From the NCBI GenBank assembly GCA_032156805.1, contig JALDXQ010000009.1, positions 3,540-67,539 on the forward strand: a stretch of 64,000 nt of DNA. The letters run 5' to 3'. This document shows, piece by piece, positions 431 through 44,872 of the stretch. The position numbers were made by a program, and so were the translations under genes. This DNA is from Acidobacteriota bacterium (GTDB taxonomy: Bacteria > Acidobacteriota > Vicinamibacteria > Vicinamibacterales > UBA2999). Under the pieces are notes generated by a model that worked only from the letters and a program-made list of their open reading frames with translations, did not search any database and was not told where the DNA came from. The first letter of the stretch is position 1; each line of letters opens with the position of its first letter.

Positions 431-1474
431 TCACCTCATCTCTCCGCCAAGGTCACCCAGATCGAAGGGAGCGCCCGCACTGATGTCGCGCTGCAACGTC
501 GCACCCACGAGCGCGGCAATCCGCGCTGGCGCGACCCGCGTTGCCGGCCGCAACGCAATGACATCGTCCTGTGACACCTGCTCGCCGGCCCGCATGGCTC
601 GACGCGCGTAGAGACCGCGCCGGCTCGCGGTCACGTTGACTGCCTCTGCCGACTGGCACACCTTGACGCCCGATCCCAGTGAACGGCGGGCCTGCTCCAT
701 CGCGCGGATGATCGCGGCAAGCTCACTTGGCGTGCTGGAGACGGCCGCATCAATGGCGGTGGTATCTCCCTCGAGCACGAGATGCCGTTCGTAGATACAT
801 GCGCCGAGCGTGACGGCCGTCACAGCCGACACAAGGCCGTTGCCGTGATCGGACAGCCCGACGGGCTGCCGGAAGGCATCGGCCAGTGTTGCGATCGCGC
901 GAAGGTTCTCGGAACCAGGCGGCACCGGGTAGGCCGACACACAGTGGAGGATCGCTGTCTGGCTGGCGCCGGCTCCTCGCGCTGCGGCAAGTGCTGCTTC
1001 GACGTCGGTCAGATCGCTCATGCCGCTCGAGATGACGACCGGGCGTCCAATGGCCGCGACCTTGCCGATCAACCCCAGATACGTGATGTCGCCGCTGGCG
1101 ATCTTGTAGGCGTCGAACCCGATCTCGGTGAGGGCCGGAATCACGTCTTCGGCAAACGGCGTCGTCATGACGGCGAGGCCGTGCCTTCGCGCGCGCGAGA
1201 CGACCTCCTGGTGACCATGGAGGTCGAGCTCGAAGGTGGCAAAGAACTCTCTGAGCGACGAGGCCTGCACGTGAGCGGGAGCCGGACAGGCCGCCGCCAC
1301 GAGGCGATCGGCGTACAGCGTCTGCAGCTTCACGGCGCTGGCGCCCGCGTCCGCGGCAGCGTCGACGAGTTCGAGCGCCCAGTCGACCGAGCCGCCGTGG
1401 TTCAATCCGATCTCGGCAATCACGAACACCGGCGCGTCCGGCCCAATCCGGCGCCCAGCAATCTCACGCAGCAT
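431..1474 (-). CDS. Nonulosonic-acid synthase, NeuB/PseI/LegI family
   Basis: ORF 431..1606 trimmed to the internal ATG at 1474. MLREIAGRRIGPDAPVFVIAEIGLNHGGSVDWALELVDAAADAGASAVKLQT is the NeuB-family N-terminal signature, and the C-terminus has a SAF-like tail. The longer version would overlap the HAD gene. Confidence 0.85.
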   Translation of the reverse strand: MLREIAGRRIGPDAPVFVIAEIGLNHGGSVDWALELVDAAADAGASAVKLQTLYADRLVAAACPAPAHVQASSLREFFATFELDLHGHQEVVSRARRHGLAVMTTPFAEDVIPALTEIGFDAYKIASGDITYLGLIGKVAAIGRPVVISSGMSDLTDVEAALAAARGAGASQTAILHCVSAYPVPPGSENLRAIATLADAFRQPVGLSDHGNGLVSAVTAVTLGACIYERHLVLEGDTTAIDAAVSSTPSELAAIIRAMEQARRSLGSGVKVCQSAEAVNVTASRRGLYARRAMRAGEQVSQDDVIALRPATRVAPARIAALVGATLQRDISAGAPFDLGDLGGEMR

Positions 1475-2138
1475 GGGCCATCCCCTGACCAACGAGCGTG
1501 GCCGCCACGCGCGGCACATCGTTGAGAAGGTGCACGACCGCGTCGGCATCGGGAGGAGGCACACGCCCGGCACCGGCGAGAAAGATCGTTCGTATGCCCA
1601 CAGCACGAGCTCCCTCGATGTCGTTCACCGGATCGTCCCCGACCATCACGGTGCTCTCCGGAGCCACCTGCAGCCGACGCAGGACCTCGATGAACGGTGC
1701 GCGAGCCGGTTTGCCCCCAGGGGCGTGTTCGCTCGCATACACAACGTGATCGACCAGCGTCTCGAGTCCAAGCGCCTGAACTTTCCTGACCTGGATGGAT
1801 GGATCGCCATTGGTCAGAATCGCTGTCCGCCATCCTGCTTCGCGAAGCGCGCTCAGCGCGCTGAGTGCGCCATGTTTCAGCCAGAGCTGAGGGGTGTGCG
1901 TCTGATACTCGCGAATGAGATCGCTCACGATCGCCGAATCGAGGCGATAGGCCTGGCACAGCCGCTGAAACTCGGTGCCGCGATGGCCAAGCTCGCGCAT
2001 ACGGCGAAGACTGCCGTACACATCCCTGGCCGGCACGCCACAGTGCCGATCGACGTAGGTTGCAACCGCGGCAAACCCGCTGTGCACGTGCTGGATGTGG
2101 GGATACAAGGTGTCGTCGAGGTCGAAGATCACAGCCAT
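1464..2138 (-). CDS. HAD-superfamily hydrolase
   Basis: MAVIFDLDDTLY (DxDxT motif I), AILTNG, and MVGDDPVNDIEGA (motif IV-like). Tightly packed in the sugar operon. Confidence 0.8.
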   Translation of the reverse strand: MAVIFDLDDTLYPHIQHVHSGFAAVATYVDRHCGVPARDVYGSLRRMRELGHRGTEFQRLCQAYRLDSAIVSDLIREYQTHTPQLWLKHGALSALSALREAGWRTAILTNGDPSIQVRKVQALGLETLVDHVVYASEHAPGGKPARAPFIEVLRRLQVAPESTVMVGDDPVNDIEGARAVGIRTIFLAGAGRVPPPDADAVVHLLNDVPRVAATLVGQGMAHAA

Positions 2139-3107
2139 CTAGCGAGACTCTCCAGCGGCTGCCAGACGCGCCACCGCAGCAGCGGCGCGGAATGCGCCTC
2201 GTCCATCAATCAACCGTCTTCCCATCCGGGACAGATGCCGTTGCATCGTGGCGTCGCTCAGAAGCGACACGCACTCTTCGGCCACGCGCTCTGCCGACAC
2301 GATGCCCCGTGCCGATCCTCTTGCGGCACCACGCGCGACGAATGCGGCAACCGTGGGACGCTGCGCGGGCACGACCGCAACACCAATCGCCGGCGTACCA
2401 AGGGCGCACGCTTCGTACAGCGAGACTCCCCCGCCGACGACCGCAACGCTGGCGCGTGCCATTTCCTGGCGAAGGCTTTGACTGGGTCCAACCCAGGTGA
2501 TCTGCTCGCGCACCGGAACCGGCGTGCTGACGAAGCCTCCCGCGACGCGCACCGTTGCGCGCGGGTCGGCATCGACAATGGCTTCGGCGATATCAACGGC
2601 GAGCTCGGCTCGGGGCCCACCGCCAAGGGCAACCAGCACGGCGAAGGGGTCGCGCGGCTCCTCCTCGTCGGGGATTGACGGGTCGAGCAGCGCATAACGC
2701 GGGCCGGAAAGCGTCGTTCCACGGCGCGCGCGACCATTCATCGTCACGCTGCCGTCGATCACCAGGTCGGCGTCGAGACATCCGAGCCCAAGGTCGTGCA
2801 CGCTGACCACCAGGCAACCGGCGCGACGGCCGGCTGCGATCCAGCGACGGGCATCTGCCGCCACCGGGTCGTCGACTACGAGAACATCCGGTGCCAGCGA
2901 TCGCAGCAGCTGCAACGGACCGCCCTGCACCACGTCGCATCCCAGCCCGAGTGCGGCTTCCTGCACCGCTGCCCCGCCTCGCAGTGCAACCAGCGGGCGG
3001 ACTCCCAGCGCACGCGCCAGAGATCGGCAGCGCACGAGGTGACCGAATCCACGGCGCGCACCGGCCGGGGCACGAAACAGCACTCGCAGATCAGCGCAGG
3101 ATGTCAT
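2139..3107 (-). CDS. PseG-like protein (GT28-fold UDP-sugar hydrolase/glycosyltransferase of nonulosonic-acid pathways)
   Basis: ORF 2139..3455 trimmed to the ATG at 3107. LRVLFRAPAGARRGFGHLVRCRSLARAL resembles the PseG N-terminal FRxD..IGxGHxxRxxxLA pattern. The upstream extension is Arg/Cys-rich and overlaps the aminotransferase gene. Confidence 0.6.
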   Translation of the reverse strand: MTSCADLRVLFRAPAGARRGFGHLVRCRSLARALGVRPLVALRGGAAVQEAALGLGCDVVQGGPLQLLRSLAPDVLVVDDPVAADARRWIAAGRRAGCLVVSVHDLGLGCLDADLVIDGSVTMNGRARRGTTLSGPRYALLDPSIPDEEEPRDPFAVLVALGGGPRAELAVDIAEAIVDADPRATVRVAGGFVSTPVPVREQITWVGPSQSLRQEMARASVAVVGGGVSLYEACALGTPAIGVAVVPAQRPTVAAFVARGAARGSARGIVSAERVAEECVSLLSDATMQRHLSRMGRRLIDGRGAFRAAAAVARLAAAGESR

Positions 3108-4341
3108 GGCAAGCGTCGATGACACGATCGACTGACGTGTCATCCATGGCTGCCGACAAGGGCAGCGAAAGGGTTGAGTCGTAGACCGACTCGGCGACTG
3201 GAAACATGCCGCGCCGGAAGCCGAATCGCTCCCGGTAGTACTGGTGCAGATGCACCGGGCGGAAATGAATGCTCGTCGAGATGCCGCGATCGCGCAGCTT
3301 GTCGCTGAGCTCGTCGCGCGACAGCCCGGCGGCCGCGGAGTCGAGGAGCACCGGATAGAGATGTCGCGCGTGCACGCTGCCCTCACCCGCGTGGGCAGGC
3401 AGACGCAGCGGCAGCGTGGCCAGGCCGGCGTCGTAACGCGCGCAGATGGCGACACGGCGATCGTGCATCCGTCGCAGCCGTGCGAGCTGATGCAGTCCGA
3501 TCGCGGCCTGGATATCCATCATGTTGTACTTGAAGCCCGGCATCACCACGTCGTAGTGAGCATTGCCATTTGGCGTGTAGCGCGCCCACGCATCCCGGCT
3601 CATGCCGTGCAGTGAGGCTGCTCGCATCAGCGTCGCGGCAGCGGTGTCGTTGGTGGTCACCATGCCGCCTTCACCGGTCGTCAGGTTCTTCGTGGCGTAG
3701 AAGCTGAAGCAGGTGAAATCGGCAATCGATCCCACCTTGAGACCGTCGGCAACTCCTTCCACGCAATGCGCGGCGTCCTCGACGATTCGAAGACCGCGCA
3801 GCTCCGACATGCGCCGGAAGGCCACCATGTCGGCAGGCAGGCCGGCGTAGTGAACCGGCATCAGCACACGCGTTCGCGGCGTGATCGCCGCCTGCGCGGC
3901 AGCTGGATCGATGTTGTGCGAGATCGGATCGATGTCGGCGAAGACCGGTGTGGCCCCGGCATGCAGCACCACATTTGCGGTCGCGCAGAACGTCAACGGT
4001 GTGGTGATGACTTCGTCGCCGCTGCCGATTCCTGTGGCGATGAGTGAGAGGTGCAGCGCCGCGGTGCACGAATTGACCGCGATCGCGTAACGCGCGCCGA
4101 CGTACTCCGCGAACGTGTGCTCGAATTCCGCGACGCGCGGCCCGGTGGACAGCCATCCCGATTCCAGCGTCGCCACGACCTCGGCAATCTCGTCGGGGCC
4201 GATGGATGGTGTGGCGAATGGAACACGTGCCCTGCGATCCGAGGGTGCGACGGGGCGAGGGTGCGAGCGTCCGGTCGCGGGGGTCCCAAGGTCCGAGGGT
4301 TCGGGTCCGAGCGTGCGAAAGCGAGAAGGTGCCGGCGACAT
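3091..4341 (-). CDS. DegT/DnrJ/EryC1/StrS-family sugar aminotransferase (PseC/LegC-like)
   Basis: SIGPDEIAEVVATLESGWLSTGPRVAEFEHTFAEYVG, and the PLP-lysine motif FSFYATKNLTTGEGG. The exact start is uncertain; there is a ~40-aa low-complexity N-terminus. Confidence 0.85.
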   Translation of the reverse strand: MSPAPSRFRTLGPEPSDLGTPATGRSHPRPVAPSDRRARVPFATPSIGPDEIAEVVATLESGWLSTGPRVAEFEHTFAEYVGARYAIAVNSCTAALHLSLIATGIGSGDEVITTPLTFCATANVVLHAGATPVFADIDPISHNIDPAAAQAAITPRTRVLMPVHYAGLPADMVAFRRMSELRGLRIVEDAAHCVEGVADGLKVGSIADFTCFSFYATKNLTTGEGGMVTTNDTAAATLMRAASLHGMSRDAWARYTPNGNAHYDVVMPGFKYNMMDIQAAIGLHQLARLRRMHDRRVAICARYDAGLATLPLRLPAHAGEGSVHARHLYPVLLDSAAAGLSRDELSDKLRDRGISTSIHFRPVHLHQYYRERFGFRRGMFPVAESVYDSTLSLPLSAAMDDTSVDRVIDACHDILR

Positions 4342-4649: not shown

Positions 4650-5465
4650 ATGGCTTCTTTCTCAGTTGTTTCCAACATCGCGTCGATGAACGCGCAGGCG
4701 AACCTGCTCAACACGAACGTCGGCCTGAACAAAGCGCTGACCCGCCTCTCGAGCGGCTTCCGCATCAACATGTCGGGCGACGACGCGGCCGGCCTGGCCG
4801 TGGCGAACCGCTATCGGTCTGACGTGGCGATCATCAGCCAGGGCATCCGCAACGCGAACGACGGATTGTCGGAGCTCCAGATCAAGGACGGCGCGCTCAA
4901 CAACATTTCGCACCTGCTCGATCGTCTCGCCACGCTGTCGACGCAGTCCGCGTCGGGGCACACCACCGCGGCACAGCGCACGATTCTGGCGCAGGAAGCA
5001 ACGGATCTCCTCGCGGAAATCAACCGCGAAGCGCAGATCGGTGGCCTCAGCGCCGACGCCGGCGTGAGCTTCTCCGTGTTCGTCAGCAACGACACCGGCA
5101 ACGAGACGATTTCGTCGACCTCGCCGATTCAGGACGTCGATGCCAACGGTCTCGCGATCGACACGATCAACATTGCGACGCAGGCTGGCGCGCAGACGGC
5201 CATCACCAGCATCGCGACGGCGATCGGAACCCTCGGCTCGGTTCAGGGCCAGGTCGGTACGCTGCAGAACCGCCTCCAGTTCGCCATCTCGCTGGCGCAG
5301 TCGCAGTTGACCAACAAGAAGGCCGCCGAGAGCCGCATCCGTGACGCGAACGTCGCTGAGGAATCGGCGAACATGACCCGGTTCAACATCCTGAGCCAGA
5401 CGGGCATTGCCGCCCTGGCACAGGCGAACCAGGCCAGCGCGTCGGTTCTGTCACTGCTCCGGTAA
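4650..5465 (+). CDS. fliC: Flagellin (short, 271 aa)
   Basis: N-terminus NAQANLLNTNVGLNKALTRLSSGFRINMSGDDAAGLAVANR and C-terminus FNILSQTGIAALAQANQASASVLSLLR are canonical flagellin D0/D1 segments. Confidence 0.95.
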   Translation: MASFSVVSNIASMNAQANLLNTNVGLNKALTRLSSGFRINMSGDDAAGLAVANRYRSDVAIISQGIRNANDGLSELQIKDGALNNISHLLDRLATLSTQSASGHTTAAQRTILAQEATDLLAEINREAQIGGLSADAGVSFSVFVSNDTGNETISSTSPIQDVDANGLAIDTINIATQAGAQTAITSIATAIGTLGSVQGQVGTLQNRLQFAISLAQSQLTNKKAAESRIRDANVAEESANMTRFNILSQTGIAALAQANQASASVLSLLR

Positions 5466-10319: not shown

Positions 10320-10550
10320 TTATTTGGCTTTCTTCAGTCGATCCGCCAGCTGCGTCAACTGGCCCGGCGACACCATGGCCAACTGATTGGCATCGCGAAT
10401 CTGGTCGTAGATCTCGCGCCGGTGGACGCGCACTTCCGGAGGCGCAACGATGCCCAACCGGACACCTTCCTTGCCGACGCGGAGCACTCGCACCTCCACG
10501 CCGTCCCCGATCATGATGGCTTCGTGTTTCCGCCGTGTGAAGACCAGCAT
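10320..10550 (-). CDS. csrA: Carbon storage regulator CsrA
   Basis: MLVFTRRKHEAIMIGDGVEVRVLRVGKEGVRLGIVAPPEVRVHRREIY is a canonical CsrA sequence. Confidence 0.95.
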   Translation of the reverse strand: MLVFTRRKHEAIMIGDGVEVRVLRVGKEGVRLGIVAPPEVRVHRREIYDQIRDANQLAMVSPGQLTQLADRLKKAK

Positions 10551-10554
10551 CGCA

Positions 10555-10977
10555 CTACTCGGCGGGAACCAGGACGTGACGCAGCGGGTAGAGGCAGTTG
10601 TGCGGTAACACCTGCTGCCCGCTCATCGTCCGCGGATTGATGACAATCGGCGCGCGCAAATTGACCGTGAGCGCACCGGTCGAGTCCATCATCACGAGCG
10701 CGAGCCACAGCAGCGGCTCGTCATCCTTGGCGCCGAGCCGCAGACGATCGGCGGCGCTGAGCTCGCAGCGATAGCCCTCGAGCACGGCGCGCGGATCAAT
10801 GGCCAGGAACGACGCCTCGGTTCCGTCGAGGGCGTGCAGCCGGCGCAGCGGCGTGGCGGCCTCGGCCGCCATCACGACCCAGCGCCTGCAGGCTTCGAAG
10901 CCGGGAATCCCATCGGGAAAAGTCACCGCCTCCGACACGGTAATTTCGGTTTCGATGGCAGCGTGTGCGGGCGTCAT
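10555..10977 (-). CDS. fliW: Flagellar assembly factor FliW
   Basis: VTFPDGIPGFEACRRWVV and ASFLAIDP patterns. Positioned between flgL and csrA. Confidence 0.85.
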   Translation of the reverse strand: MTPAHAAIETEITVSEAVTFPDGIPGFEACRRWVVMAAEAATPLRRLHALDGTEASFLAIDPRAVLEGYRCELSAADRLRLGAKDDEPLLWLALVMMDSTGALTVNLRAPIVINPRTMSGQQVLPHNCLYPLRHVLVPAE

Positions 10978-13260: not shown

Positions 13261-13617
13261 TTAGACCCGCGCGTCCAGCGCCTGTGCGGCGTACGGTGTC
13301 GCGGTCCTCCGCGGCCCGTACTCACTGCGCCCCTGGGCCTCGAGGCTGATTCTCACGAAACTGTCGAGGGCGCTTCCCAACCGGCGGCAACGCAGCAGTG
13401 CCTGGTGCGCGCCTTCAACCTCGACGCGAACGGCACGCCGTTCCTCATCCGGCAGCGAATAAACGGCCGGGAGCTCGGCGAGGGCTCTTTCGATCTCGGA
13501 CTCACCCGCCAGCAGCCGCTCGACATCTGGTTGCACCAGCGCCGCCGCAGTTCGCTCGAGCGCGAGGCGCAGCCGCATCACCGCGGCCGCCGCGCGCGTC
13601 CCTTCGTCGCTCATCAC
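13261..13617 (-). CDS. FlgN-like export chaperone (positional call)
   Basis: 118-aa helical protein between flgM and flgK, with a 4-nt overlap with flgM. No strong motif. Confidence 0.5.
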   Translation of the reverse strand: MMSDEGTRAAAAVMRLRLALERTAAALVQPDVERLLAGESEIERALAELPAVYSLPDEERRAVRVEVEGAHQALLRCRRLGSALDSFVRISLEAQGRSEYGPRRTATPYAAQALDARV

Positions 13618-13916
13618 TTCTTGTCGTCCATCATGTGGTCGATGAGCGCTTCGGCAAGCTTGCTGGCGTCAGCCCCCAGCGAACCCTCGGCCAACGCCTT
13701 CTTGGCAGCCTCGACCCGGTCGGCTCGGATGGCTGGCGCATCGTTGGCCGCCTGCGCCGCCGCATTCATCAGCGCCGCATCCGAGGAAACCTCGACGCGG
13801 TCGGCCTTGGCCGCCTTCGCCTGGTTCTGTGCGCGCTCGGTCGTCGTGCCAGCCTCAGTCCGATCGATCTGCGTCGGAAGGCCAGTACCCTGGTTGCCGT
13901 CAATTCGTGAAGTCAT
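13614..13916 (-). CDS. flgM: Anti-sigma-28 factor FlgM
   Basis: 100-aa protein whose C-terminus RVEAAKKALAEGSLGADASKLAEALIDHM matches the FlgM sigma-28-binding region. Confidence 0.8.
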   Translation of the reverse strand: MTSRIDGNQGTGLPTQIDRTEAGTTTERAQNQAKAAKADRVEVSSDAALMNAAAQAANDAPAIRADRVEAAKKALAEGSLGADASKLAEALIDHMMDDKK

Positions 13917-18101: not shown

Positions 18102-18130
18102 CGCTGAACCTTTCTCCGTATTCGTCGATT

Positions 18131-18185
18131 TAACGTGTAGGCCGGGTCCTGCTTTTGCCCTTCGACTACGCTCAGGGCACCCCGA
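18131..18185 (-). repeat. Conserved ~55-nt intergenic element, copy A (upstream of flgG)
   Basis: The core TTTGCCCTTCGACTACGCTCAGGGCACCC plus flanks aligns with 32044-32095 in the same orientation relative to the flagellar genes. Confidence 0.75.
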
Positions 18186-18196
18186 GCAACGTCGAG

Positions 18197-18229
18197 GGGC
18201 GGGCCCCGGTGGGCCACCGGGGCCCGCCC
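18197..18229. terminator. 33-nt GC-rich perfect palindrome just downstream of the flgF stop
   Basis: GGGCGGGCCCCGGTGG-G-CCACCGGGGCCCGCCC. No T-tract follows. Confidence 0.5.
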
Positions 18230-18240
18230 TACGCCGAGCC

Positions 18241-18960
18241 TTACTTCCGTCCGAGCTCCGTGATCGCGCGTCCGTCGATGTCGTTCATGAGCACCGAGAT
18301 TCCCTTCTGCAACGCTTCGAAGGCGCGCGAGACCTCGGTCATGGCCGCAACGCGCTCGACGACGGATACGTTGGACTGCTCCAGAGACCTGGTGAAGACG
18401 CGAGCATCTTCGACCTCGGTCGCTTCCAGGCTGTCTGGCGCGCTGAACCGTGCCCCCGTCTCGCGCACGAGACCGGCCTGATCTTCGAAGGTCACCACCT
18501 TGACCTTGCCGGCGATCGTCTGACCGACACGGATGGTGCCGTCAGCAGTCACCATGACCGGACCTTCCGTAAGGCGAATCTCACCGCTGTCACCAGCCAC
18601 CGGCATGTCGTCCATCGTCGTCAACAGGCCATCGGCCTGGAGCTTGAAGTTCCCGGCGCGCGTGTAACGCGTCCCGCCGGGCGTTTCGATCTCGAAAAAC
18701 CCCGGGCCTTCGATCGCCATGTCGAGATCGCGCCCGGTTGAGGCGATGGTGCCCGGCTGGAAGTTCGTCTTGTGCCCACCGTGCGTGACGTCGATCGCCG
18801 AATCGAGCGCTGACGCGAAGGCGCGCCTCGCCTCTTCGGTAGACGTCCGCTGGGTCTTGTAGCCGGCGGTGCCTGCATTGGCCAGGTCGGCAGCGAGCCG
18901 ATCCAGGTCATCGAGGCGCATCCGCATGCCACTCAGTGCGCTGTAAGCTCCGCCTGGCAT
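18241..18960 (-). CDS. flgF: Proximal rod protein FlgF
   Basis: ORF 18241..19281 trimmed to the ATG at 18960, preceded by GGAGGAG. MPGGAYSALSGMRMRLDDLDRLAADLANAGTAGYK. Confidence 0.85.
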   Translation of the reverse strand: MPGGAYSALSGMRMRLDDLDRLAADLANAGTAGYKTQRTSTEEARRAFASALDSAIDVTHGGHKTNFQPGTIASTGRDLDMAIEGPGFFEIETPGGTRYTRAGNFKLQADGLLTTMDDMPVAGDSGEIRLTEGPVMVTADGTIRVGQTIAGKVKVVTFEDQAGLVRETGARFSAPDSLEATEVEDARVFTRSLEQSNVSVVERVAAMTEVSRAFEALQKGISVLMNDIDGRAITELGRK

Positions 18961-19787
18961 CCTCGCTCCTCCTGCGTTCCTGTCACGAGCAGATCGCTGA
19001 TCTGTTGCGCCGCATTCACGCGCACCCAGCGATACGTGTTGCACTCGGCGTGCTGCATGGTCACCGCACGCGCCTGGGCCGCCATGTTGGCGATATGTGC
19101 AATCGCGTCGCTCACGCTCCTCATGGTCAACGCCTCGTGAGAGCGCCGCGTTTCCTGGGCCGGCCTGTAGGCATCGAGCGCCGCCTGACACACCGAATCG
19201 GTCACGAGAAAAATCTCCGGTGCCCATCCAGTCAGCCGCACGAGCGCCCGCATCGCTGCCCTGGGCACCGGTGCGGCGCACACGACGGACAACCTCTTCA
19301 GCACCTCGTCGGCCTCGAACGGCACGAGCCCGAGCGCGCGAACCGTTGCGGCCGGCAGCGGCACCGGGGCGCGCTCCACGCGGCTGACATCGAACGTCGC
19401 GAGGTACTTCACGCCAGCCTGTGTCGCCAGCGCACGCAGCACTTCTTCAGCCGTCGCGTAACCCAGACGCTCGAGTTGCTGGCCGATCTTCAGCCCGGTG
19501 CGGGCCGTGGCCTCGAGGGCCGCGTCGAGCTCAGGCTGCGTCACCGCGCCCGCGTGGCGAAGCAGGACACCAAGCTTCAGCGGTGGCAATCCCGACAGGC
19601 TTCTCCCCGGCGACCGCTCTTCGGTCAATCCGGCACGCACAGCCTGCTCGACGCAACTGCGCGAGCAGTACCAGAGGCCGTTGAACTGCAGGGCGCCGAT
19701 GCTGCGGACCGAGGGCCCGGCCACACGTTCGAGCGCAGCCAGGTTGGGTCGCCAGCGCCCGCACCTGTCGTCAGCGCACCGTGGCAT
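18933..19787 (-). CDS. Cys-cluster + MshEN/T2SSE_N-like domain protein (putative c-di-GMP receptor), no ATPase domain
   Basis: Residues 71-123 read KLGVLLRHAGAVTQPELDAALEAT-ARTGL-KIGQQLERLGYATAEEVLRALATQ, i.e. two 24-residue repeats with a 5-residue spacer. The N-terminus has CADDRC...YCSRSC. The gene overlaps both neighbours. Confidence 0.6.
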   Translation of the reverse strand: MPRCADDRCGRWRPNLAALERVAGPSVRSIGALQFNGLWYCSRSCVEQAVRAGLTEERSPGRSLSGLPPLKLGVLLRHAGAVTQPELDAALEATARTGLKIGQQLERLGYATAEEVLRALATQAGVKYLATFDVSRVERAPVPLPAATVRALGLVPFEADEVLKRLSVVCAAPVPRAAMRALVRLTGWAPEIFLVTDSVCQAALDAYRPAQETRRSHEALTMRSVSDAIAHIANMAAQARAVTMQHAECNTYRWVRVNAAQQISDLLVTGTQEERGCQAELTAH

Positions 19788-20169: not shown

Positions 20170-20996
20170 TACACCTCCATCGAACGCACACGTTCACGCT
20201 GACTGACCACATCCAGGATGCGGATGCCGTAGCTGCCCGAGACGATGACCACTTCGCCATGAGCCACGACGCGATTGCTGACGAGCACTTCCACCGGATC
20301 GTCCGGAGAGCGCCCGAGATCAATGACTGACCCGGGGCCGAGGCGCGTCAGCGCGCGCAGCGGGAGCTCCGTCTGGCCGAACCTCACGACGAGCGGAAGG
20401 TCGATGTCGAGAATGACATCGATGCGATCGTCGAACGATTGCTCGGGCGACGGCTCGGCGGCCTGAGCGGTCCTGGCTGGTGCCGGCGATGCCACTGACA
20501 CCGGCTTCGGGGCAGGCGCGGCTTTCGCGGCGGCCGCCTGGGTGGCGGTGAAGGCACCGGATATCGTGACCGTCAGCGCAACTGGAAGCTTCTCCGCGCT
20601 GATGGCGTAGGCAGCCCATTCGCCGTCGGGTACACGGCGCTCGCTCGGAACGACCTCACCAATCGACAGCTTCGCGCCGCGGGCGACCGGCTTGAGTGAG
20701 ACAGCACTGCCTGCCTGGGCCAGCACCTCGCGCAGCGTGTCGAGCAGCGCCTCGTCCGGGATGTTGCCTTCGATACCGGTCATGAGGCCCGTGACCGCAG
20801 TCCCGCCCTCATGATCGAGCACGACCGTCATCGTTCCGGTCAGCGCACCGTCGGCCTTCACTTCCACAACCCACTGCCGTCCCATTGCCGGTGCACCGGG
20901 CGCAACGGCGGCCGTGGAATCGATCATCGCCCCGACCACGACTGCCAGTTCGTCGGCGAAGGCGCCGAACATCTCGCGATTCACGTACGCACTCAT
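20169..20996 (-). CDS. FliN-domain switch protein with a long N-terminal extension (FliY-like)
   Basis: C-terminal SpoA/FliN domain DLPLVVRFGQTELPLRALTRLGPGSVIDLGRSPDDPVEVLVSNRVVAHGEVV. The N-terminal ~150 aa is CheC-like, with a degenerate D-x3-E-x2-A motif. Confidence 0.8.
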   Translation of the reverse strand: MSAYVNREMFGAFADELAVVVGAMIDSTAAVAPGAPAMGRQWVVEVKADGALTGTMTVVLDHEGGTAVTGLMTGIEGNIPDEALLDTLREVLAQAGSAVSLKPVARGAKLSIGEVVPSERRVPDGEWAAYAISAEKLPVALTVTISGAFTATQAAAAKAAPAPKPVSVASPAPARTAQAAEPSPEQSFDDRIDVILDIDLPLVVRFGQTELPLRALTRLGPGSVIDLGRSPDDPVEVLVSNRVVAHGEVVIVSGSYGIRILDVVSQRERVRSMEV

Positions 20997-21985
20997 GCGG
21001 CAGCTCCTTGCTGCACTGCGTTCTTGGTCAGCGATTCGATCTGTACACCGGCGCTCTTTCCGTGCTGTGTCAGCCGGCCACCAAAGCGACGGACCTGACC
21101 GATGTGCACGTCAACAGGCTGCGCCACGGAGTGGCCGAGCGACAGCACATCTCCCGGCTTCAGCGCAATCAGATCGCGCGCCGTCAACGTCGTCTCGAGG
21201 AGAGCCGTCACCGGCAGCGGCACGCGGCCCAGGTTGGCGTGCAGCCAGGCTTCTTCATCGGGAGTCGGCTGCTTGCGCGTTCGCTGCCATCCCTGCTCGA
21301 ACGCTTCGCCAACGGCTTCGATCGCAGCCGCGGGAATACAGATGTTCACCATCCCGCGCGTCTCAGCGATCCGAATGTCGAACACCAGCAGGATGACAAT
21401 CTCGGTCGGCCCGGTCACCTGCAGCATCTGCGGTCGCGTTTCGCGCGCCTGGATGCGGAACTCCATGTTGGCCACCGGCCGCCATGTCTCCGTCAGGTTG
21501 TCGAGCATCAGGTTGACGACCGAATCGACGACGTTCTGCTCAATCAGCGTCAGCGCACGATTGGGCCCGGGCGTCTGACCGGTGCCGCCGAGCAACCGAT
21601 CGACCATCGTGAAGGCAATCGACGGATTGATCTCGAGCGCTCCGACGCCGTCAAACAGGCTGAGATTCACCGCGTAGAACGCCGTCGGATCCGGCAGCGA
21701 CATGAGGAATTCCGAGTACGCGAACTGCTCCACCGAGACGATGCTCACTTCGGTCATCGCCCTGAGGAATGCCGACAGCGAGGTCGACACGTTCAGCGCA
21801 AACCGGTCATGCAGGAAATGCAGCGAACGTAGCTGCTCCTTCGAGACCCGATCGGGACGACGGAAGTTGTAGATGACGACGCCGCCCGAGGACGCGCCGT
21901 CGACCGGCTCGGCCGCACGCTCGGTGGCCGCTGCCGACGAAGCCAGCAGTGCGTCGATTTCATCCTGCGAGAGAATCTTGCTCAC
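20993..21985 (-). CDS. fliM: Flagellar switch protein FliM
   Basis: LSQDEIDALL (CheY-P-binding motif) and FRRPDRVSKEQLRSLHFLHDRFA. I place the start at GTG 21985, overlapping the fliA stop (GTGA) with GGAGG upstream. The track ORF extends to 22078. Confidence 0.9.
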   Translation of the reverse strand: MSKILSQDEIDALLASSAAATERAAEPVDGASSGGVVIYNFRRPDRVSKEQLRSLHFLHDRFALNVSTSLSAFLRAMTEVSIVSVEQFAYSEFLMSLPDPTAFYAVNLSLFDGVGALEINPSIAFTMVDRLLGGTGQTPGPNRALTLIEQNVVDSVVNLMLDNLTETWRPVANMEFRIQARETRPQMLQVTGPTEIVILLVFDIRIAETRGMVNICIPAAAIEAVGEAFEQGWQRTRKQPTPDEEAWLHANLGRVPLPVTALLETTLTARDLIALKPGDVLSLGHSVAQPVDVHIGQVRRFGGRLTQHGKSAGVQIESLTKNAVQQGAAA

Positions 21986-22728
21986 GCGCGTGCCTCCACC
22001 AGGCCGAGAGACCGGCGCAGCAACGTCCGCAGCCGTGATATGGCCAGTGAGCGCAGCTGGCTGACACGCGATTCGCACACGCCGATGACCTCGCCGATTT
22101 CAGCAAGGGTCAGCTCTTCCTGGTAATACATCGCCAGGATCTGTCGCTCGCGTTCGGGCAGTTCGTCGATCGCGCGTGCCAGGTGCACCTTGAGCTCTTT
22201 ACGCTCGAGTTGTGCCACGGCGTCTTCCGATGCGTCGATGCACAGCTCGACCAGCGGCGTTCCGTCCGGGGTTGGTGCATCGAGCTGACGCACCGAACCG
22301 ACTTCCAGCGTCCGCAACTGCTCGAGCGCCTTCTCGTAGGCAGGAACCGAAAGGTCCATCGCCTCGGCAATCTCGTCCTCGCGCGGCTCGCGCGCAAGAC
22401 GATGGCGCAGCGACGCCACCGCCGCGTCCATCTCGCGGCGCAGGCGACGAAGCGACCGCGGCGCCCAATCGAGCTCGCGCAGCGCATCGAGCATCGCGCC
22501 GTTCACCCGCCGGCGCGCAAACGCATCGAACGGCACGCCGAGCGTTGGACGGTACCGGGTCGCTGCATCGATCAGCCCCAGCACGCCAACGCTGATCAGA
22601 TCGTTCATCTCGACCTGCGACGGCAGGCGCTGAGCCAGTCGCTGGGCCAGCGTCTTGACCAGCCCCACGTGCTCCATCACCAGTCGATCACGAGCATCCG
22701 TGGTCGCGGCGGGCGTCTTCACGCGCAC
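21982..22728 (-). CDS. fliA: Flagellar sigma factor sigma-28 (FliA)
   Basis: Region 2 DLISVGVLGLIDAATRY and region 4 LTLAEIGEVIGVCESRVSQL. Follows flhF-flhG. Confidence 0.9.
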   Translation of the reverse strand: MRVKTPAATTDARDRLVMEHVGLVKTLAQRLAQRLPSQVEMNDLISVGVLGLIDAATRYRPTLGVPFDAFARRRVNGAMLDALRELDWAPRSLRRLRREMDAAVASLRHRLAREPREDEIAEAMDLSVPAYEKALEQLRTLEVGSVRQLDAPTPDGTPLVELCIDASEDAVAQLERKELKVHLARAIDELPERERQILAMYYQEELTLAEIGEVIGVCESRVSQLRSLAISRLRTLLRRSLGLVEARA

Positions 22729-43060: not shown

Positions 43061-43165
43061 CACCTCTGACCATCCAGGGATCTTACTGACACCCGCATGA
43101 GAGCCCCTGGCTGGTCGGGGAGTGTCTCTGTGGCGCGCTCCGGCGCGCCGGCTCAGGATATCAAC

Positions 43166-43531
43166 ATGCGCTTTCTGATCGTCGACGATTCGAGCACGAT
43201 GCGCCGCATCATCATCAACACGCTGAACAAGCTCGGACACCAGGATGTGGCCGAAGCTGGCAACGGCAAAGAGGGGCTCGATCGCCTCAGTGCCGGCCCC
43301 GTGGACGTGATTATCACGGACTGGAACATGCCGGAGATGAGCGGCATCGATTTCATCCGCACCGTGCGCTCGATGCCCGAGATCAAGGACACGCCGGTGC
43401 TGATGGTCACCACCAACGCGGCCAAGGACGACATCGTGGAGGCGCTCAAGGCGGGCGTCAACAGCTACGTCGTGAAGCCATTCACTCCTGACACGATGAA
43501 GGAGAAGATCGAGGCCGTCCTCTCCCGGTAA
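43166..43531 (+). CDS. cheY: CheY-like single-domain response regulator
   Basis: Trimmed to the ATG at 43166. MRFLIVDDSSTMRRII, ITDWNMPEMSG, and SYVVKPFT are classic CheY signatures. 121 aa. Confidence 0.9.
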   Translation: MRFLIVDDSSTMRRIIINTLNKLGHQDVAEAGNGKEGLDRLSAGPVDVIITDWNMPEMSGIDFIRTVRSMPEIKDTPVLMVTTNAAKDDIVEALKAGVNSYVVKPFTPDTMKEKIEAVLSR

Positions 43532-43538
43532 GACTCCG

Positions 43539-44030
43539 ATGCCTACAGCCGCCATCGACAGTTTGTTCATCGACGAGCTCACCGCGGCGACCCGCGATGT
43601 GTTCAAGACGATGGTCTTCCAGGAACTGGAAGCTGCGACACCGACGTCGGGCGAGGCGTTGAAGCCCGGTGCCAACGTCGTCGGCACGGTCGCCTTCGCC
43701 GGCAAGACCGCGGGTCTGGTCGTGTTCTACAGCACGCTGGACGCAGCCCGGGCGATTACCGCTTCGATGCTCGGCATCGAGCCAGCAAGCGTCAACGGTG
43801 AACTACCTGATGCCATCGGCGAGTTGACGAACATGATCGCCGGTTCGTTCCGCACCCGTATGGCGCACGCCAAGGGCGAGACGTGGGCGATCTCGGTCCC
43901 GACGGTGACCGTCGGATCTGACTTCTACACCAAGTACGTGAGCGACGTGCAGCGGGTGTTGTGCCCGTTTCGCATGAACAAGGCGGAGCTGTACGTCGAG
44001 CTCATTGTCACGAGGAGCGCAGACCAATGA
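43539..44030 (+). CDS. cheX: CheX-type CheY-P phosphatase
   Basis: Residues 91-121 (DAIGELTN followed 23 positions later by P) match the CheC/CheX/FliY active-site consensus D/S-x3-E-x2-N-x22-P exactly. A single site in 163 aa fits CheX. Confidence 0.8.
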   Translation: MPTAAIDSLFIDELTAATRDVFKTMVFQELEAATPTSGEALKPGANVVGTVAFAGKTAGLVVFYSTLDAARAITASMLGIEPASVNGELPDAIGELTNMIAGSFRTRMAHAKGETWAISVPTVTVGSDFYTKYVSDVQRVLCPFRMNKAELYVELIVTRSADQ

Positions 44031-44872
44031 GCGGCTATGCCACCTGGGCCGACTGGGTCGAATCTGGCGAATGGGCGGATGCCGGTGATTCGGCGATGCC
44101 GATGCTGCCTGCGCTGGCGGCCGACGTCATGTCGCTTGCGCTCGATCCCGACGTGAGCATCACCCGGCTGGCGCGAGTGATCACGAAGGATCAGGTGCTG
44201 GCCACCCGCGTGTTGCGCCTGGCCAACTCGGCGTACTGCGCGCCGATGCAGGAGGTCACCACGGTCAACGACGCGATTGTGCGCATGGGCACCGGTCCGG
44301 TGCGCAACGTCGTGCTGGCAGTGTGCTTCACGTCGCGACTGCAGGGCGCCAACGTCTACGGGCCGCAGGGCCGCGAGCTGGTCGATCACGCCATCGGCAC
44401 CGCCTACCTGTCGCGACTGGTGGCCGAACGCGCCGGAGTGGATGCCGACGAGGCGTTCATGTGCGGCCTGCTGCACGACATGGGCAAGCTGCTCATCCTC
44501 AAGCTGGCCCGCGACTTCATCAAGTTCGGTGTGCCGACGCCATCGGCGCAGGAAATCGACACGGTGTGCCGTGATCGGCATCCGCAGATCGGCGCCCGCC
44601 TGCTGCGACAGTGGCAGCTTCCCTCGGCGCTCGAAGGCCCGGTGCAGTACCACCACGATCCCGCGGCGAGCACGACACACGGCCGTGAATCGTCGGTGAC
44701 CTATATGGCGAATCGCCTCGCTCATCGCTACGGCTTCGGCTGCCAGGCCGATGAGACGAATCTGCTCGAGGATCCCATCTGCACGAGTCTGGGGCTGAAC
44801 GATGCGTGGCAGGCCGACCTCGATCGCCGCGCCCCCGGACTCTTCCAGGTCGCACGACAGATCGTCGCGTAG
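44027..44872 (+). CDS. HDOD-domain protein
   Basis: Trimmed to the ATG at 44027 (ATGA overlap with the cheX stop). LARVITKDQVLATRVLRLANSAYC and GLLHDMGKLLIL. Confidence 0.8.
   Translation: MSGYATWADWVESGEWADAGDSAMPMLPALAADVMSLALDPDVSITRLARVITKDQVLATRVLRLANSAYCAPMQEVTTVNDAIVRMGTGPVRNVVLAVCFTSRLQGANVYGPQGRELVDHAIGTAYLSRLVAERAGVDADEAFMCGLLHDMGKLLILKLARDFIKFGVPTPSAQEIDTVCRDRHPQIGARLLRQWQLPSALEGPVQYHHDPAASTTHGRESSVTYMANRLAHRYGFGCQADETNLLEDPICTSLGLNDAWQADLDRRAPGLFQVARQIVA

Follow-up and report, generated by a model that had tools for sequence, protein, structure and literature searches.

Why a 284-amino-acid (aa) protein with a domain best known from secretion ATPases should be encoded within a flagellar operon is the question raised by a 64,000-nucleotide (nt) stretch of an Acidobacteriota bacterium genome (GCA_032156805.1, contig JALDXQ010000009.1, positions 3,540 to 67,539; the whole stretch is referred to here as the window). 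An initial annotation, made by a model from the sequence alone, had described the gene product as a stand-alone MshEN-like protein that may bind cyclic di-GMP (c-di-GMP). The product is best explained as a soluble protein of three predicted domains, namely a Cys4 zinc finger (ZnF), an MshEN domain that is complete, and a C-terminal domain (CTD) specific to the family; Vicinamibacteria and other Acidobacteriota would employ it as an accessory part dedicated to their flagellar system. The extent of the gene (Table 1) was confirmed from the open reading frame (ORF) list, as were its two overlaps: the start codon lies 17 nt within the upstream 132-aa ORF, and the stop codon lies 28 nt within flgF, both of which bear out embedding in the flagellar operon and translational coupling. 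The flgF start was placed at the ATG at 18960, where homologue alignments begin and an AGGAGG lies upstream, and an overlap between flgF and the ZnF-MshEN gene was also seen in relatives. Terminator-like sites between 13 and 31 kb were not commoner than in shuffled sequence, and this absence of terminator enrichment within the gene string is consistent with long co-transcribed gene strings. A non-coding gap of 139 nt (18102-18240) separates flgF from flgG in an otherwise overlapping string, and could hold an internal promoter or regulatory element.

The MshEN assignment is carried by two profile matches that pass their curated thresholds. The NCBIfam model NF053729 ('cyclic di-GMP-binding domain-containing protein, MshE-related') aligned to residues 71-123 from end to end (model positions 1-53 of 53) with a score of 42.1 bits (E 5.5e-11; curated cutoff 38 bits), and Pfam PF05157 (MshEN) matched residues 139-212 with 25 bits (gathering score 23.1). 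The two 24-residue repeats with a 5-residue linker that had been noted at residues 71-123 are confirmed by the first of these matches, the quoted sequence being correct, and as judged by profile scores the match is more than a chance resemblance. All 24 diverse family members analysed also matched NF053729 at E<=1e-5 (best 5e-18), and sequence relatives in the PDB at E<0.1 were solely MshEN-type N-terminal domains (T. thermophilus PilF, V. cholerae MshE and PilB). An AlphaFold2 model built from 81 family sequences (predicted local distance difference test, pLDDT, 87.8; predicted template modelling score, pTM, 0.81) showed helices 72-78, 84-97, 101-107 and 113-124, corresponding to MshEN_N, and an alpha/beta region at 134-206, corresponding to MshEN_C, with low confidence for the linker 56-70 and a disordered tail after the CTD. 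Foldseek analysis of the model against the PDB gave as top match V. cholerae MshE in complex with c-di-GMP (5htl; E 5e-9, target TM-score 0.76, 143 columns), on which the model superposes, followed by structures of the T. thermophilus PilF GSPII-B domain with c-di-GMP bound. Both the N and the C subdomain are present within residues 70-210, so that nothing of MshEN is missing; therefore about half of the ~85-aa C-terminus previously called unrecognisable is the normal second subdomain of MshEN, and only residues ~216-284 are without an assigned family.

No T2SSE ATPase domain was detected in the 284-aa protein by Pfam at E<=10, in agreement with the earlier statement that no secretion ATPase domain follows, and the TIGR02538 PilB model matched over positions 2-168 of 564 only, far under its cutoff. 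A PilZ domain was likewise not matched by Pfam or NCBIfam at E<=10, and partial NCBIfam matches were seen to the NfrB and PRK15489 models (E 1e-7 to 1e-10). On the evidence of sequence and model, the 284-aa protein is a member of the MshEN family, and neither a GspE/PilB/MshE ATPase nor a PilZ protein.

The published c-di-GMP motif is RLGxxL(L/V/I)xxG(L/V/I/F)(L/V/I)xxxxLxxxLxxQ, present twice with a 5-residue linker, and a relaxed form, [RKPN]hGxxhhxx[GAS]hhxxxxhxxxhxx[QNKRYWST], has been used for searching (PMC5013675). Position 7 of each half is the one place at which the 284-aa protein departs from the relaxed motif, and the regular expression matches once that position is freed; the claimed fit to the MshEN consensus therefore holds at all positions but one per repeat, and fails where position 7 is polar (R77, E106). 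The motif residues are conserved among 81 orthologues, with G73, L75, L76, L91, L120 and A121 present in all 81, G102 and Q123 in 80, L87 in 79, K or R at position 71 in all 81 and R or K at position 100 in 79. At the scale of the superfamily, in which identity falls to ~21%, invariance is limited to C41, C45, G73, G102, Q123, P156 and W254; these are putative zinc ligands, positions of the c-di-GMP motif and two further residues that belong to neither group. That motif positions are among the most conserved of the superfamily argues that the ligand site is under selection, although it is no proof of binding. We infer c-di-GMP binding from the motif in the sequence, from the fold and from the conservation, taken together.

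The regions on either side of MshEN are specific to this family. The N-terminal CX4C...CX3C cysteine cluster noted in the initial annotation is present as C4-x4-C9 and C41-x3-C45, and none of the four cysteines varies in an alignment of 20 N-terminal sequences. In the AlphaFold2 model a beta-hairpin (33-40) and the helix that follows it (43-55) carry C41 and C45 opposite C4 and C9, and the pattern CX4C...WYCSxxC together with this modelled shape points to a putative Cys4 finger of the treble-clef/TRASH-like type. No significant relative of the finger was found in the Pfam scan or the PDB profile search, and the matches to eL24, zf-CW, zf-FCS and MYND were all sub-threshold (E>0.01). The CTD, which contains W254, and R256 that is nearly invariant across the superfamily, gave a pLDDT of 80 when modelled alone; Foldseek against the PDB returned nothing under E 0.26, and the fold has a mere topological likeness to half of a glyoxalase/VOC module. 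A CTD in common with NfrB was considered, as the NCBIfam envelopes reached residues 245-248, but is not supported, since E. coli NfrB aligns to the MshEN region only (residues 72-163 by BLASTP; 64-149 by hhalign, probability 93.7%).

A word-indexed search identified 211 homologue clusters at E<=1e-3. Among the 120 matches listed, most homologues were near full length (about 250-320 aa), and they were unnamed or named 'hypothetical protein', with two generic type II secretion protein E labels. An exhaustive profile search gave 95 representatives at E<=1e-30; at E 1e-21 to 1e-29 it brought in more proteins that have the architecture in full length. In a literature search that left out most subscription journals, no published description of the ZnF-MshEN family was found and no report of a zinc-finger MshEN architecture or of an MshEN gene within a flagellar operon; the supplement of Wang et al. 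2016 does not describe the family. A genome scan located 25 loci, nearly all in metagenome-assembled genomes labelled Vicinamibacteria, Vicinamibacterales or Acidobacteriota. With X as the ZnF-MshEN gene, the order flhF-flhG-fliA-fliM-fliN-small ORF-X-flgF-flgG-flgA-flgH-flgI-flgJ was found by tblastn in all 22 Vicinamibacteria-type loci (L001-L022 and L024; proteins 36-88% identical), some short loci being incomplete and a few without a detectable flhG. The more distant members checked were 21-26% identical, and in 8 of the 9 contexts the gene lay between fliN and flgF. It is directly upstream of flgF in L027, L028 and L034/L035, separated from flgF by a 79-aa ORF in L037, and overlaps fliN in L031, where the short contig stops before any flgF; the order is fliN-X-HDOD-flgF in L023, L025 and L026, and fliN-HDOD-DUF2802-X-flgF in L032. 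Conservation of the position between fliN and flgF in related genomes, one of the checks suggested at the outset, was thus confirmed, and the association of the family with the fliN-flgF interval is old and strong, but not absolute. A subgroup (P0146, 375 aa, and P0152, 477 aa; L034 6001-7434) has a long Ala/Pro/Arg-rich C-terminal extension while still lying in the fliN-flgF interval; the first repeat of this subgroup is partly degenerate, with H or R instead of G at position 10.

The 132-aa ORF that overlaps the start of the ZnF-MshEN gene had been described as a small membrane/helix-turn-helix (HTH) ORF. The membrane part of this description stands, as a hydrophobic stretch at ~5-22 is read from the sequence alone as a transmembrane (TM) helix; the ORF is better read as FipA-like and of DUF2802 type, with a G...E..L signature. 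FipA, a membrane protein defined by DUF2802, binds FlhF through this domain, and FlhF depends on FipA for recruitment to the pole. Its residues G110, E126 and L129 are fully conserved, with G110 and L129 required for FlhF binding; FipA homologues are described as widespread among gamma-proteobacteria, with no mention of Acidobacteria or of c-di-GMP (PMC11620751). In the 132-aa protein a segment reading LLTDTxExGLRD is conserved at the centre, and RRGRSVQDIAAxEQMSEGEVRLRL marks a DUF2802-like domain at the C-terminus. In the acidobacterial alignment G95 and E111 are invariant and L114 nearly so, with the same spacing as G110/E126/L129 of VpFipA (G-16-E-3-L). Of its aligned relatives, 4/16 match Pfam DUF2802 (best E 2.6e-8) and 5/16 match DUF6115, and the L032 gene in the corresponding position is itself a Pfam DUF2802 gene. 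The 132-aa ORF product resembles a divergent FipA-like (DUF2802-type) protein, sharing with proteins of the FipA-FlhF polarity module (PMC11620751) a layout of short N-terminus, TM-like stretch and conserved C-terminal domain, and having flhF and flhG encoded alongside; it differs from gamma-proteobacterial FipA in that the window copy is too divergent for Pfam DUF2802. A longest-ORF scan showed that the FipA-like and ZnF-MshEN genes overlap by 17 nt in 20 of the 22 Vicinamibacteria-type loci, and by 14-23 nt in L020, L024, L027, L028 and L032; overlaps of 14-23 nt were counted in 21 of the 22 loci. This recurring overlap suggests that the two proteins are made together, and they probably also act together. 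In keeping with the restriction of FipA to genomes that have FlhF and FlhG, in the window and in most related loci that are long enough flhF and flhG lie ~3 kb upstream in the gene string. The FipA-like neighbour suggests a link of the ZnF-MshEN protein with FlhF-dependent assembly or placement that is no weaker than the link with the switch complex.

The mechanism that we favour is one in which the protein, as a putative c-di-GMP receptor, would couple the signal to flagellar assembly or placement through the FipA-like protein and FlhF; this is the most likely of the functions considered, and we regard it as about as likely as not. One c-di-GMP would be bound by the four-helix bundle of MshEN_N via the tandem 24-residue repeats, as in MshE and PilF, and ligand binding would alter docking to partners encoded alongside. 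The preferred partner would be the FipA-like protein, which is read as membrane-anchored and would be contacted at its DUF2802-like domain in the cytoplasm, and thence FlhF/FlhG, with the outcome that flagellar initiation, placement or number would depend on the cellular c-di-GMP level. This choice of partner is derived from gene order and from analogy with the docking of secretion ATPases to membrane-platform proteins by MshEN/N1E domains, and two points speak for it: the FipA-like gene is tightly coupled to that of the 284-aa protein, and the MshEN/N1E domains of secretion ATPases are modules to which partner proteins dock, the EpsE-N/EpsL (2bh1) and PilB-N/PilZ (7lkm) complexes being among the structural matches. 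HDOD genes adjoin the ZnF-MshEN gene in other lineages (L023 6930-7943, L025 6825-7838, L026 2056-2799 and L032 2040-2909), which suggests that HDOD, FipA-like and ZnF-MshEN proteins may form a functional trio, and makes the HDOD protein a possible functional partner. A broader and more tentative reading, which we regard as possible but would not favour, is that ZnF-MshEN-CTD proteins may represent a third, hitherto unrecognised class of flagellar c-di-GMP effectors, besides PilZ proteins and the FleQ/FliI/TipF-type receptors. With the FipA-like protein (and HDOD in some lineages) they would make up a module, encoded in the interval from switch to rod genes, through which FlhF-dependent initiation or placement would depend directly on c-di-GMP in Acidobacteriota.

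Several observations weigh against the proposed coupling of c-di-GMP to FlhF. With respect to the ligand, position 7 of both repeats is polar where the consensus residue is hydrophobic, leaving the relaxed published motif unmatched; R9 and Q32, which are pivotal in V. cholerae MshE (PMC12943098), correspond to K71 and T94; and MshEN domains that do not bind c-di-GMP exist, e.g. XpsE (PMC5013675). No PilZ, GGDEF, EAL or HD-GYP gene was found among the window ORFs scanned, in line with the earlier remark that no PilZ-type effector is visible, and active c-di-GMP signalling in the host organism is assumed. With respect to the partner, the window's own 132-aa protein has no Pfam DUF2802 match at E<=0.1, and L023, L025, L026 and L031 have no FipA-like gene beside the ZnF-MshEN gene; since a FipA-like neighbour is missing in several distant lineages, FipA is not a universal partner. 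With respect to the flagellar role itself, the L036 member (P0218, 672-1589) shares the three-domain layout and is not part of a flagellar cluster, its neighbours being genes for an OmpR-type response regulator and a class A penicillin-binding protein, so the family appears to include non-flagellar paralogues too.

The alternative that survives best, which we nevertheless consider unlikely, is the idea of the initial annotation that the protein, once loaded with c-di-GMP, docks on the C-ring (on FliM/FliN and possibly on FliG) and there works as a brake or clutch or modulates switch bias, a function like that of YcgR, MotI or FlgZ with MshEN in place of PilZ. The gene lies just downstream of fliM-fliN, overlaps fliN in L031, and has no FipA-like gene intervening in L023, L025 and L026. 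However, the 284-aa protein has no PilZ-like or YcgR-N-like domain, and the tight coupling in the window lineage is to the FipA-like gene rather than to fliN. Gene order alone cannot separate a C-ring target from the FipA-like/FlhF target.

Less probable than a C-ring target is a ligand-independent assembly or scaffold factor, in which MshEN would serve as a docking module only (cf. GspE N1-GspL and Xanthomonas PilB-N-PilZ). Besides the K71 and T94 substitutions and the polar position 7, this explanation draws on the structural matches, which included the non-binding XpsE (2d27, 2d28) and Xanthomonas PilB-N docking PilZ (7lkm, 7lko). In the family, position 71 is K in 62 and R in 19 of the 81 sequences, and position 94 is variable (Q25/T17/K14/A10/S8), both within the relaxed motif classes. 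XpsE, in which c-di-GMP binding is lost, carries the changes G11V, I19R, L29R, R38G, G40L, L54H, L58C and Q61V (PMC5013675), whereas no XpsE-type disabling change is present at the equivalent positions of the 284-aa protein, the VcMshE residues G11/I19/L25/L29/R38/G40/L54/L58/Q61 corresponding to G73/A81/L87/L91/K100/G102/V116/L120/Q123, which are identical or conservative and are conserved in the 81 orthologues. The strong conservation of the motif positions would also be hard to explain without a ligand. As for position 7, in the Vicinamibacteria clade it is R in 77/81 sequences in the first repeat (R77 = 19557-19559) and E or Q in 71/81 in the second (E106 = 19470-19472), whereas distant family members have near-canonical repeats with a hydrophobic position 7, as does MshE. 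Pair statistics for R77/E106 (R/E 71, R/Q 26, R/R 14 and hydrophobic/hydrophobic 37 of 210) show partial covariation, and it is possible, as speculation, that an R77-E106 salt bridge replaces a hydrophobic pair.

We regard as improbable a c-di-GMP-responsive, FleQ-like regulator of flagellar genes, with the zinc finger binding DNA or RNA at promoters or mRNAs. The Cys4 finger with its FCS/TRASH-like WYCSxxC signature is strictly conserved and shows weak, sub-threshold likeness to eL24, zf-FCS, MYND and zf-CW fingers. However, these resemblances are all non-significant (E>0.01), small treble-clef fingers contact proteins equally often, the 284-aa protein has no HTH or other nucleic-acid-binding domain, and the window already has FliA, FlgM, CsrA/FliW and a sigma-54 activator. 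That the gene is a functionless relic or pseudogene, left over from an ATPase of type II secretion or of type IV pili (GspE/PilB) after loss of the ATPase domain, a reading suggested by the fact that MshEN is best known from those enzymes, is highly improbable and effectively refuted by full-length family conservation, own N- and C-terminal domains, flagellar synteny that is stable over deep divergence, and invariant residues indicating strong purifying selection.

In comparison with known systems, the 284-aa protein has in common with V. cholerae MshE (5htl) and T. thermophilus PilF (8pdk and others) the 53-residue double-repeat motif, the 5-residue linker and the two-subdomain fold. It differs from them in lacking a secretion ATPase, in the Cys4 finger and new CTD that flank MshEN, in the location of its gene in a flagellar operon and not in an msh, pil or gsp operon, and, relative to VcMshE, in R9K, Q32T and the polar position 7 of both repeats. 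MshEN occurs outside secretion ATPases likewise in the c-di-GMP-activated glycosyltransferases NfrB and PRK15489, as a C-terminal regulatory module; similarity to NfrB is limited to the MshEN region, and the 284-aa protein has no glycosyltransferase or membrane domain. The PilZ effectors YcgR, MotI/DgrA and FlgZ are alike in the proposed role, that of a small c-di-GMP receptor acting directly on the flagellar machinery, but their receptor fold is unrelated and, to our knowledge, their genes are generally not embedded between switch and rod genes.

Control of motility by c-di-GMP is a central theme of bacterial signalling. The initial annotation had taken the known flagellar effectors to be PilZ proteins or FleQ only, which is too narrow, as FliI and TipF also belong among them. 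Caulobacter TipF is a membrane-anchored degenerate-EAL c-di-GMP receptor required for assembly of the polar flagellum, and its binding of c-di-GMP licenses polar recruitment of early flagellar components. TipF is the closest functional analogy to the preferred FlhF-directed mechanism, although its domain is unrelated (EAL versus MshEN) and there is no sequence relationship. The direct flagellar c-di-GMP receptors known to us, namely PilZ proteins, FleQ, FliI and TipF, are nearly all from Proteobacteria and Firmicutes. FliI is mentioned as a flagellar c-di-GMP effector, and fusions of MshEN to ATPase, glycosyltransferase, REC, HD-GYP, CheA, CheX, cyclase and kinase domains are reported (PMC5013675). 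Of the proposal that the 284-aa protein would be a new type of c-di-GMP input, the new receptor architecture stands, and a new principle does not, other non-PilZ effectors being known already; the novelty lies in the architecture, and in the cellular system, in which an already known receptor domain is found. An MshEN-based receptor encoded within flagellar operons would, in this major phylum of soils, pair receptor and output in a new way, with a specific link suggested from c-di-GMP to the FlhF/FlhG system that sets flagellar number and position. The FipA-like neighbour would extend the FipA family, known as a source of polarity factors since 2024, to Acidobacteriota; if this is true, polarity factors of the FipA type occur beyond the gamma-proteobacteria. 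The protein is small and soluble, its predicted ligand site is specified down to single residues, and the domain architecture provides a basis for naming >200 'hypothetical protein' clusters.

Table 1. Coordinates of the ZnF-MshEN-CTD gene, its predicted domains and other window features (positions of the window)
Feature	Coordinates	Strand	Basis or remark
ZnF-MshEN-CTD gene, 284 aa	18933..19787	-	ORF list, homologues, model
N-terminal 4-Cys zinc finger (putative), residues 1-55 (C4, C9, C41, C45; WYCSxxC)	19623..19787	-	alignment, model
MshEN_N, two 24-residue repeats + 5-residue linker, residues 71-123	19419..19577	-	NF053729, conservation, four model helices
MshEN_C alpha/beta subdomain, residues 124-210	19158..19418	-	Pfam PF05157, Foldseek
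Family-specific beta-alpha-beta-beta-beta domain, residues 216-268	18984..19142	-	models; W254, R256
flgF, proximal rod	18241..18960	-	Pfam LlgE_F_G_D1 + Flg_bbr_C; downstream of ZnF-MshEN gene
FipA-like protein, 132 aa	19771..20169	-	alignment, relatives' DUF2802 matches; 17-nt overlap with ZnF-MshEN gene
Long FliN-type switch protein, 275 aa	20169..20996	-	Pfam FliMN_C at residues 195-264 only
HDOD/HD-domain gene	43961..44872	+	Pfam HDOD E 3.4e-46; after cheY-cheX (43097-44872)
flagellin, fliD, fliS; flgK, flgL, flgM; fliW, csrA; flgJIHAGF, fliM, fliN			window flagellar genes
fliA, flhG, flhF, flhA, flhB, fliPQR; fliL, fliK, flgE, fliFGHI			window flagellar genes
REC-sigma54 activator, histidine kinase, cheY-cheX-HDOD			window regulatory/chemotaxis genes

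The window as a whole carries a near-complete flagellar regulon (Table 1). Absence of the anti-sigma factor FlgM was ruled out, as a bona fide FlgM is encoded at 13614..13916. The label fliY given earlier to the gene of the 275-aa switch protein is unproven, since Pfam sees FliMN_C at the C-terminus only and gives no match to the N-terminal part; a distant counterpart (L037 3-839) shows a weak CheX-like match (E 0.009). A fliW-csrA pair, familiar from Bacillus and Campylobacter as the module that acts on flagellin translation by partner switching, lies directly downstream of flgK-flgL (10320-10977, minus strand). Genes for a NeuB-family sugar synthase and a DegT/DnrJ aminotransferase lie beside the flagellin gene (431-4341, minus strand, and 4650-5465, plus strand), which suggests an island for flagellin glycosylation of the nonulosonic-acid type. 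The mechanically called ORFs of fliA (21982-22728, minus strand) and fliM (20993-22078, minus strand) overlap by ~97 nt, and the true fliM start is probably downstream of the listed GTG.

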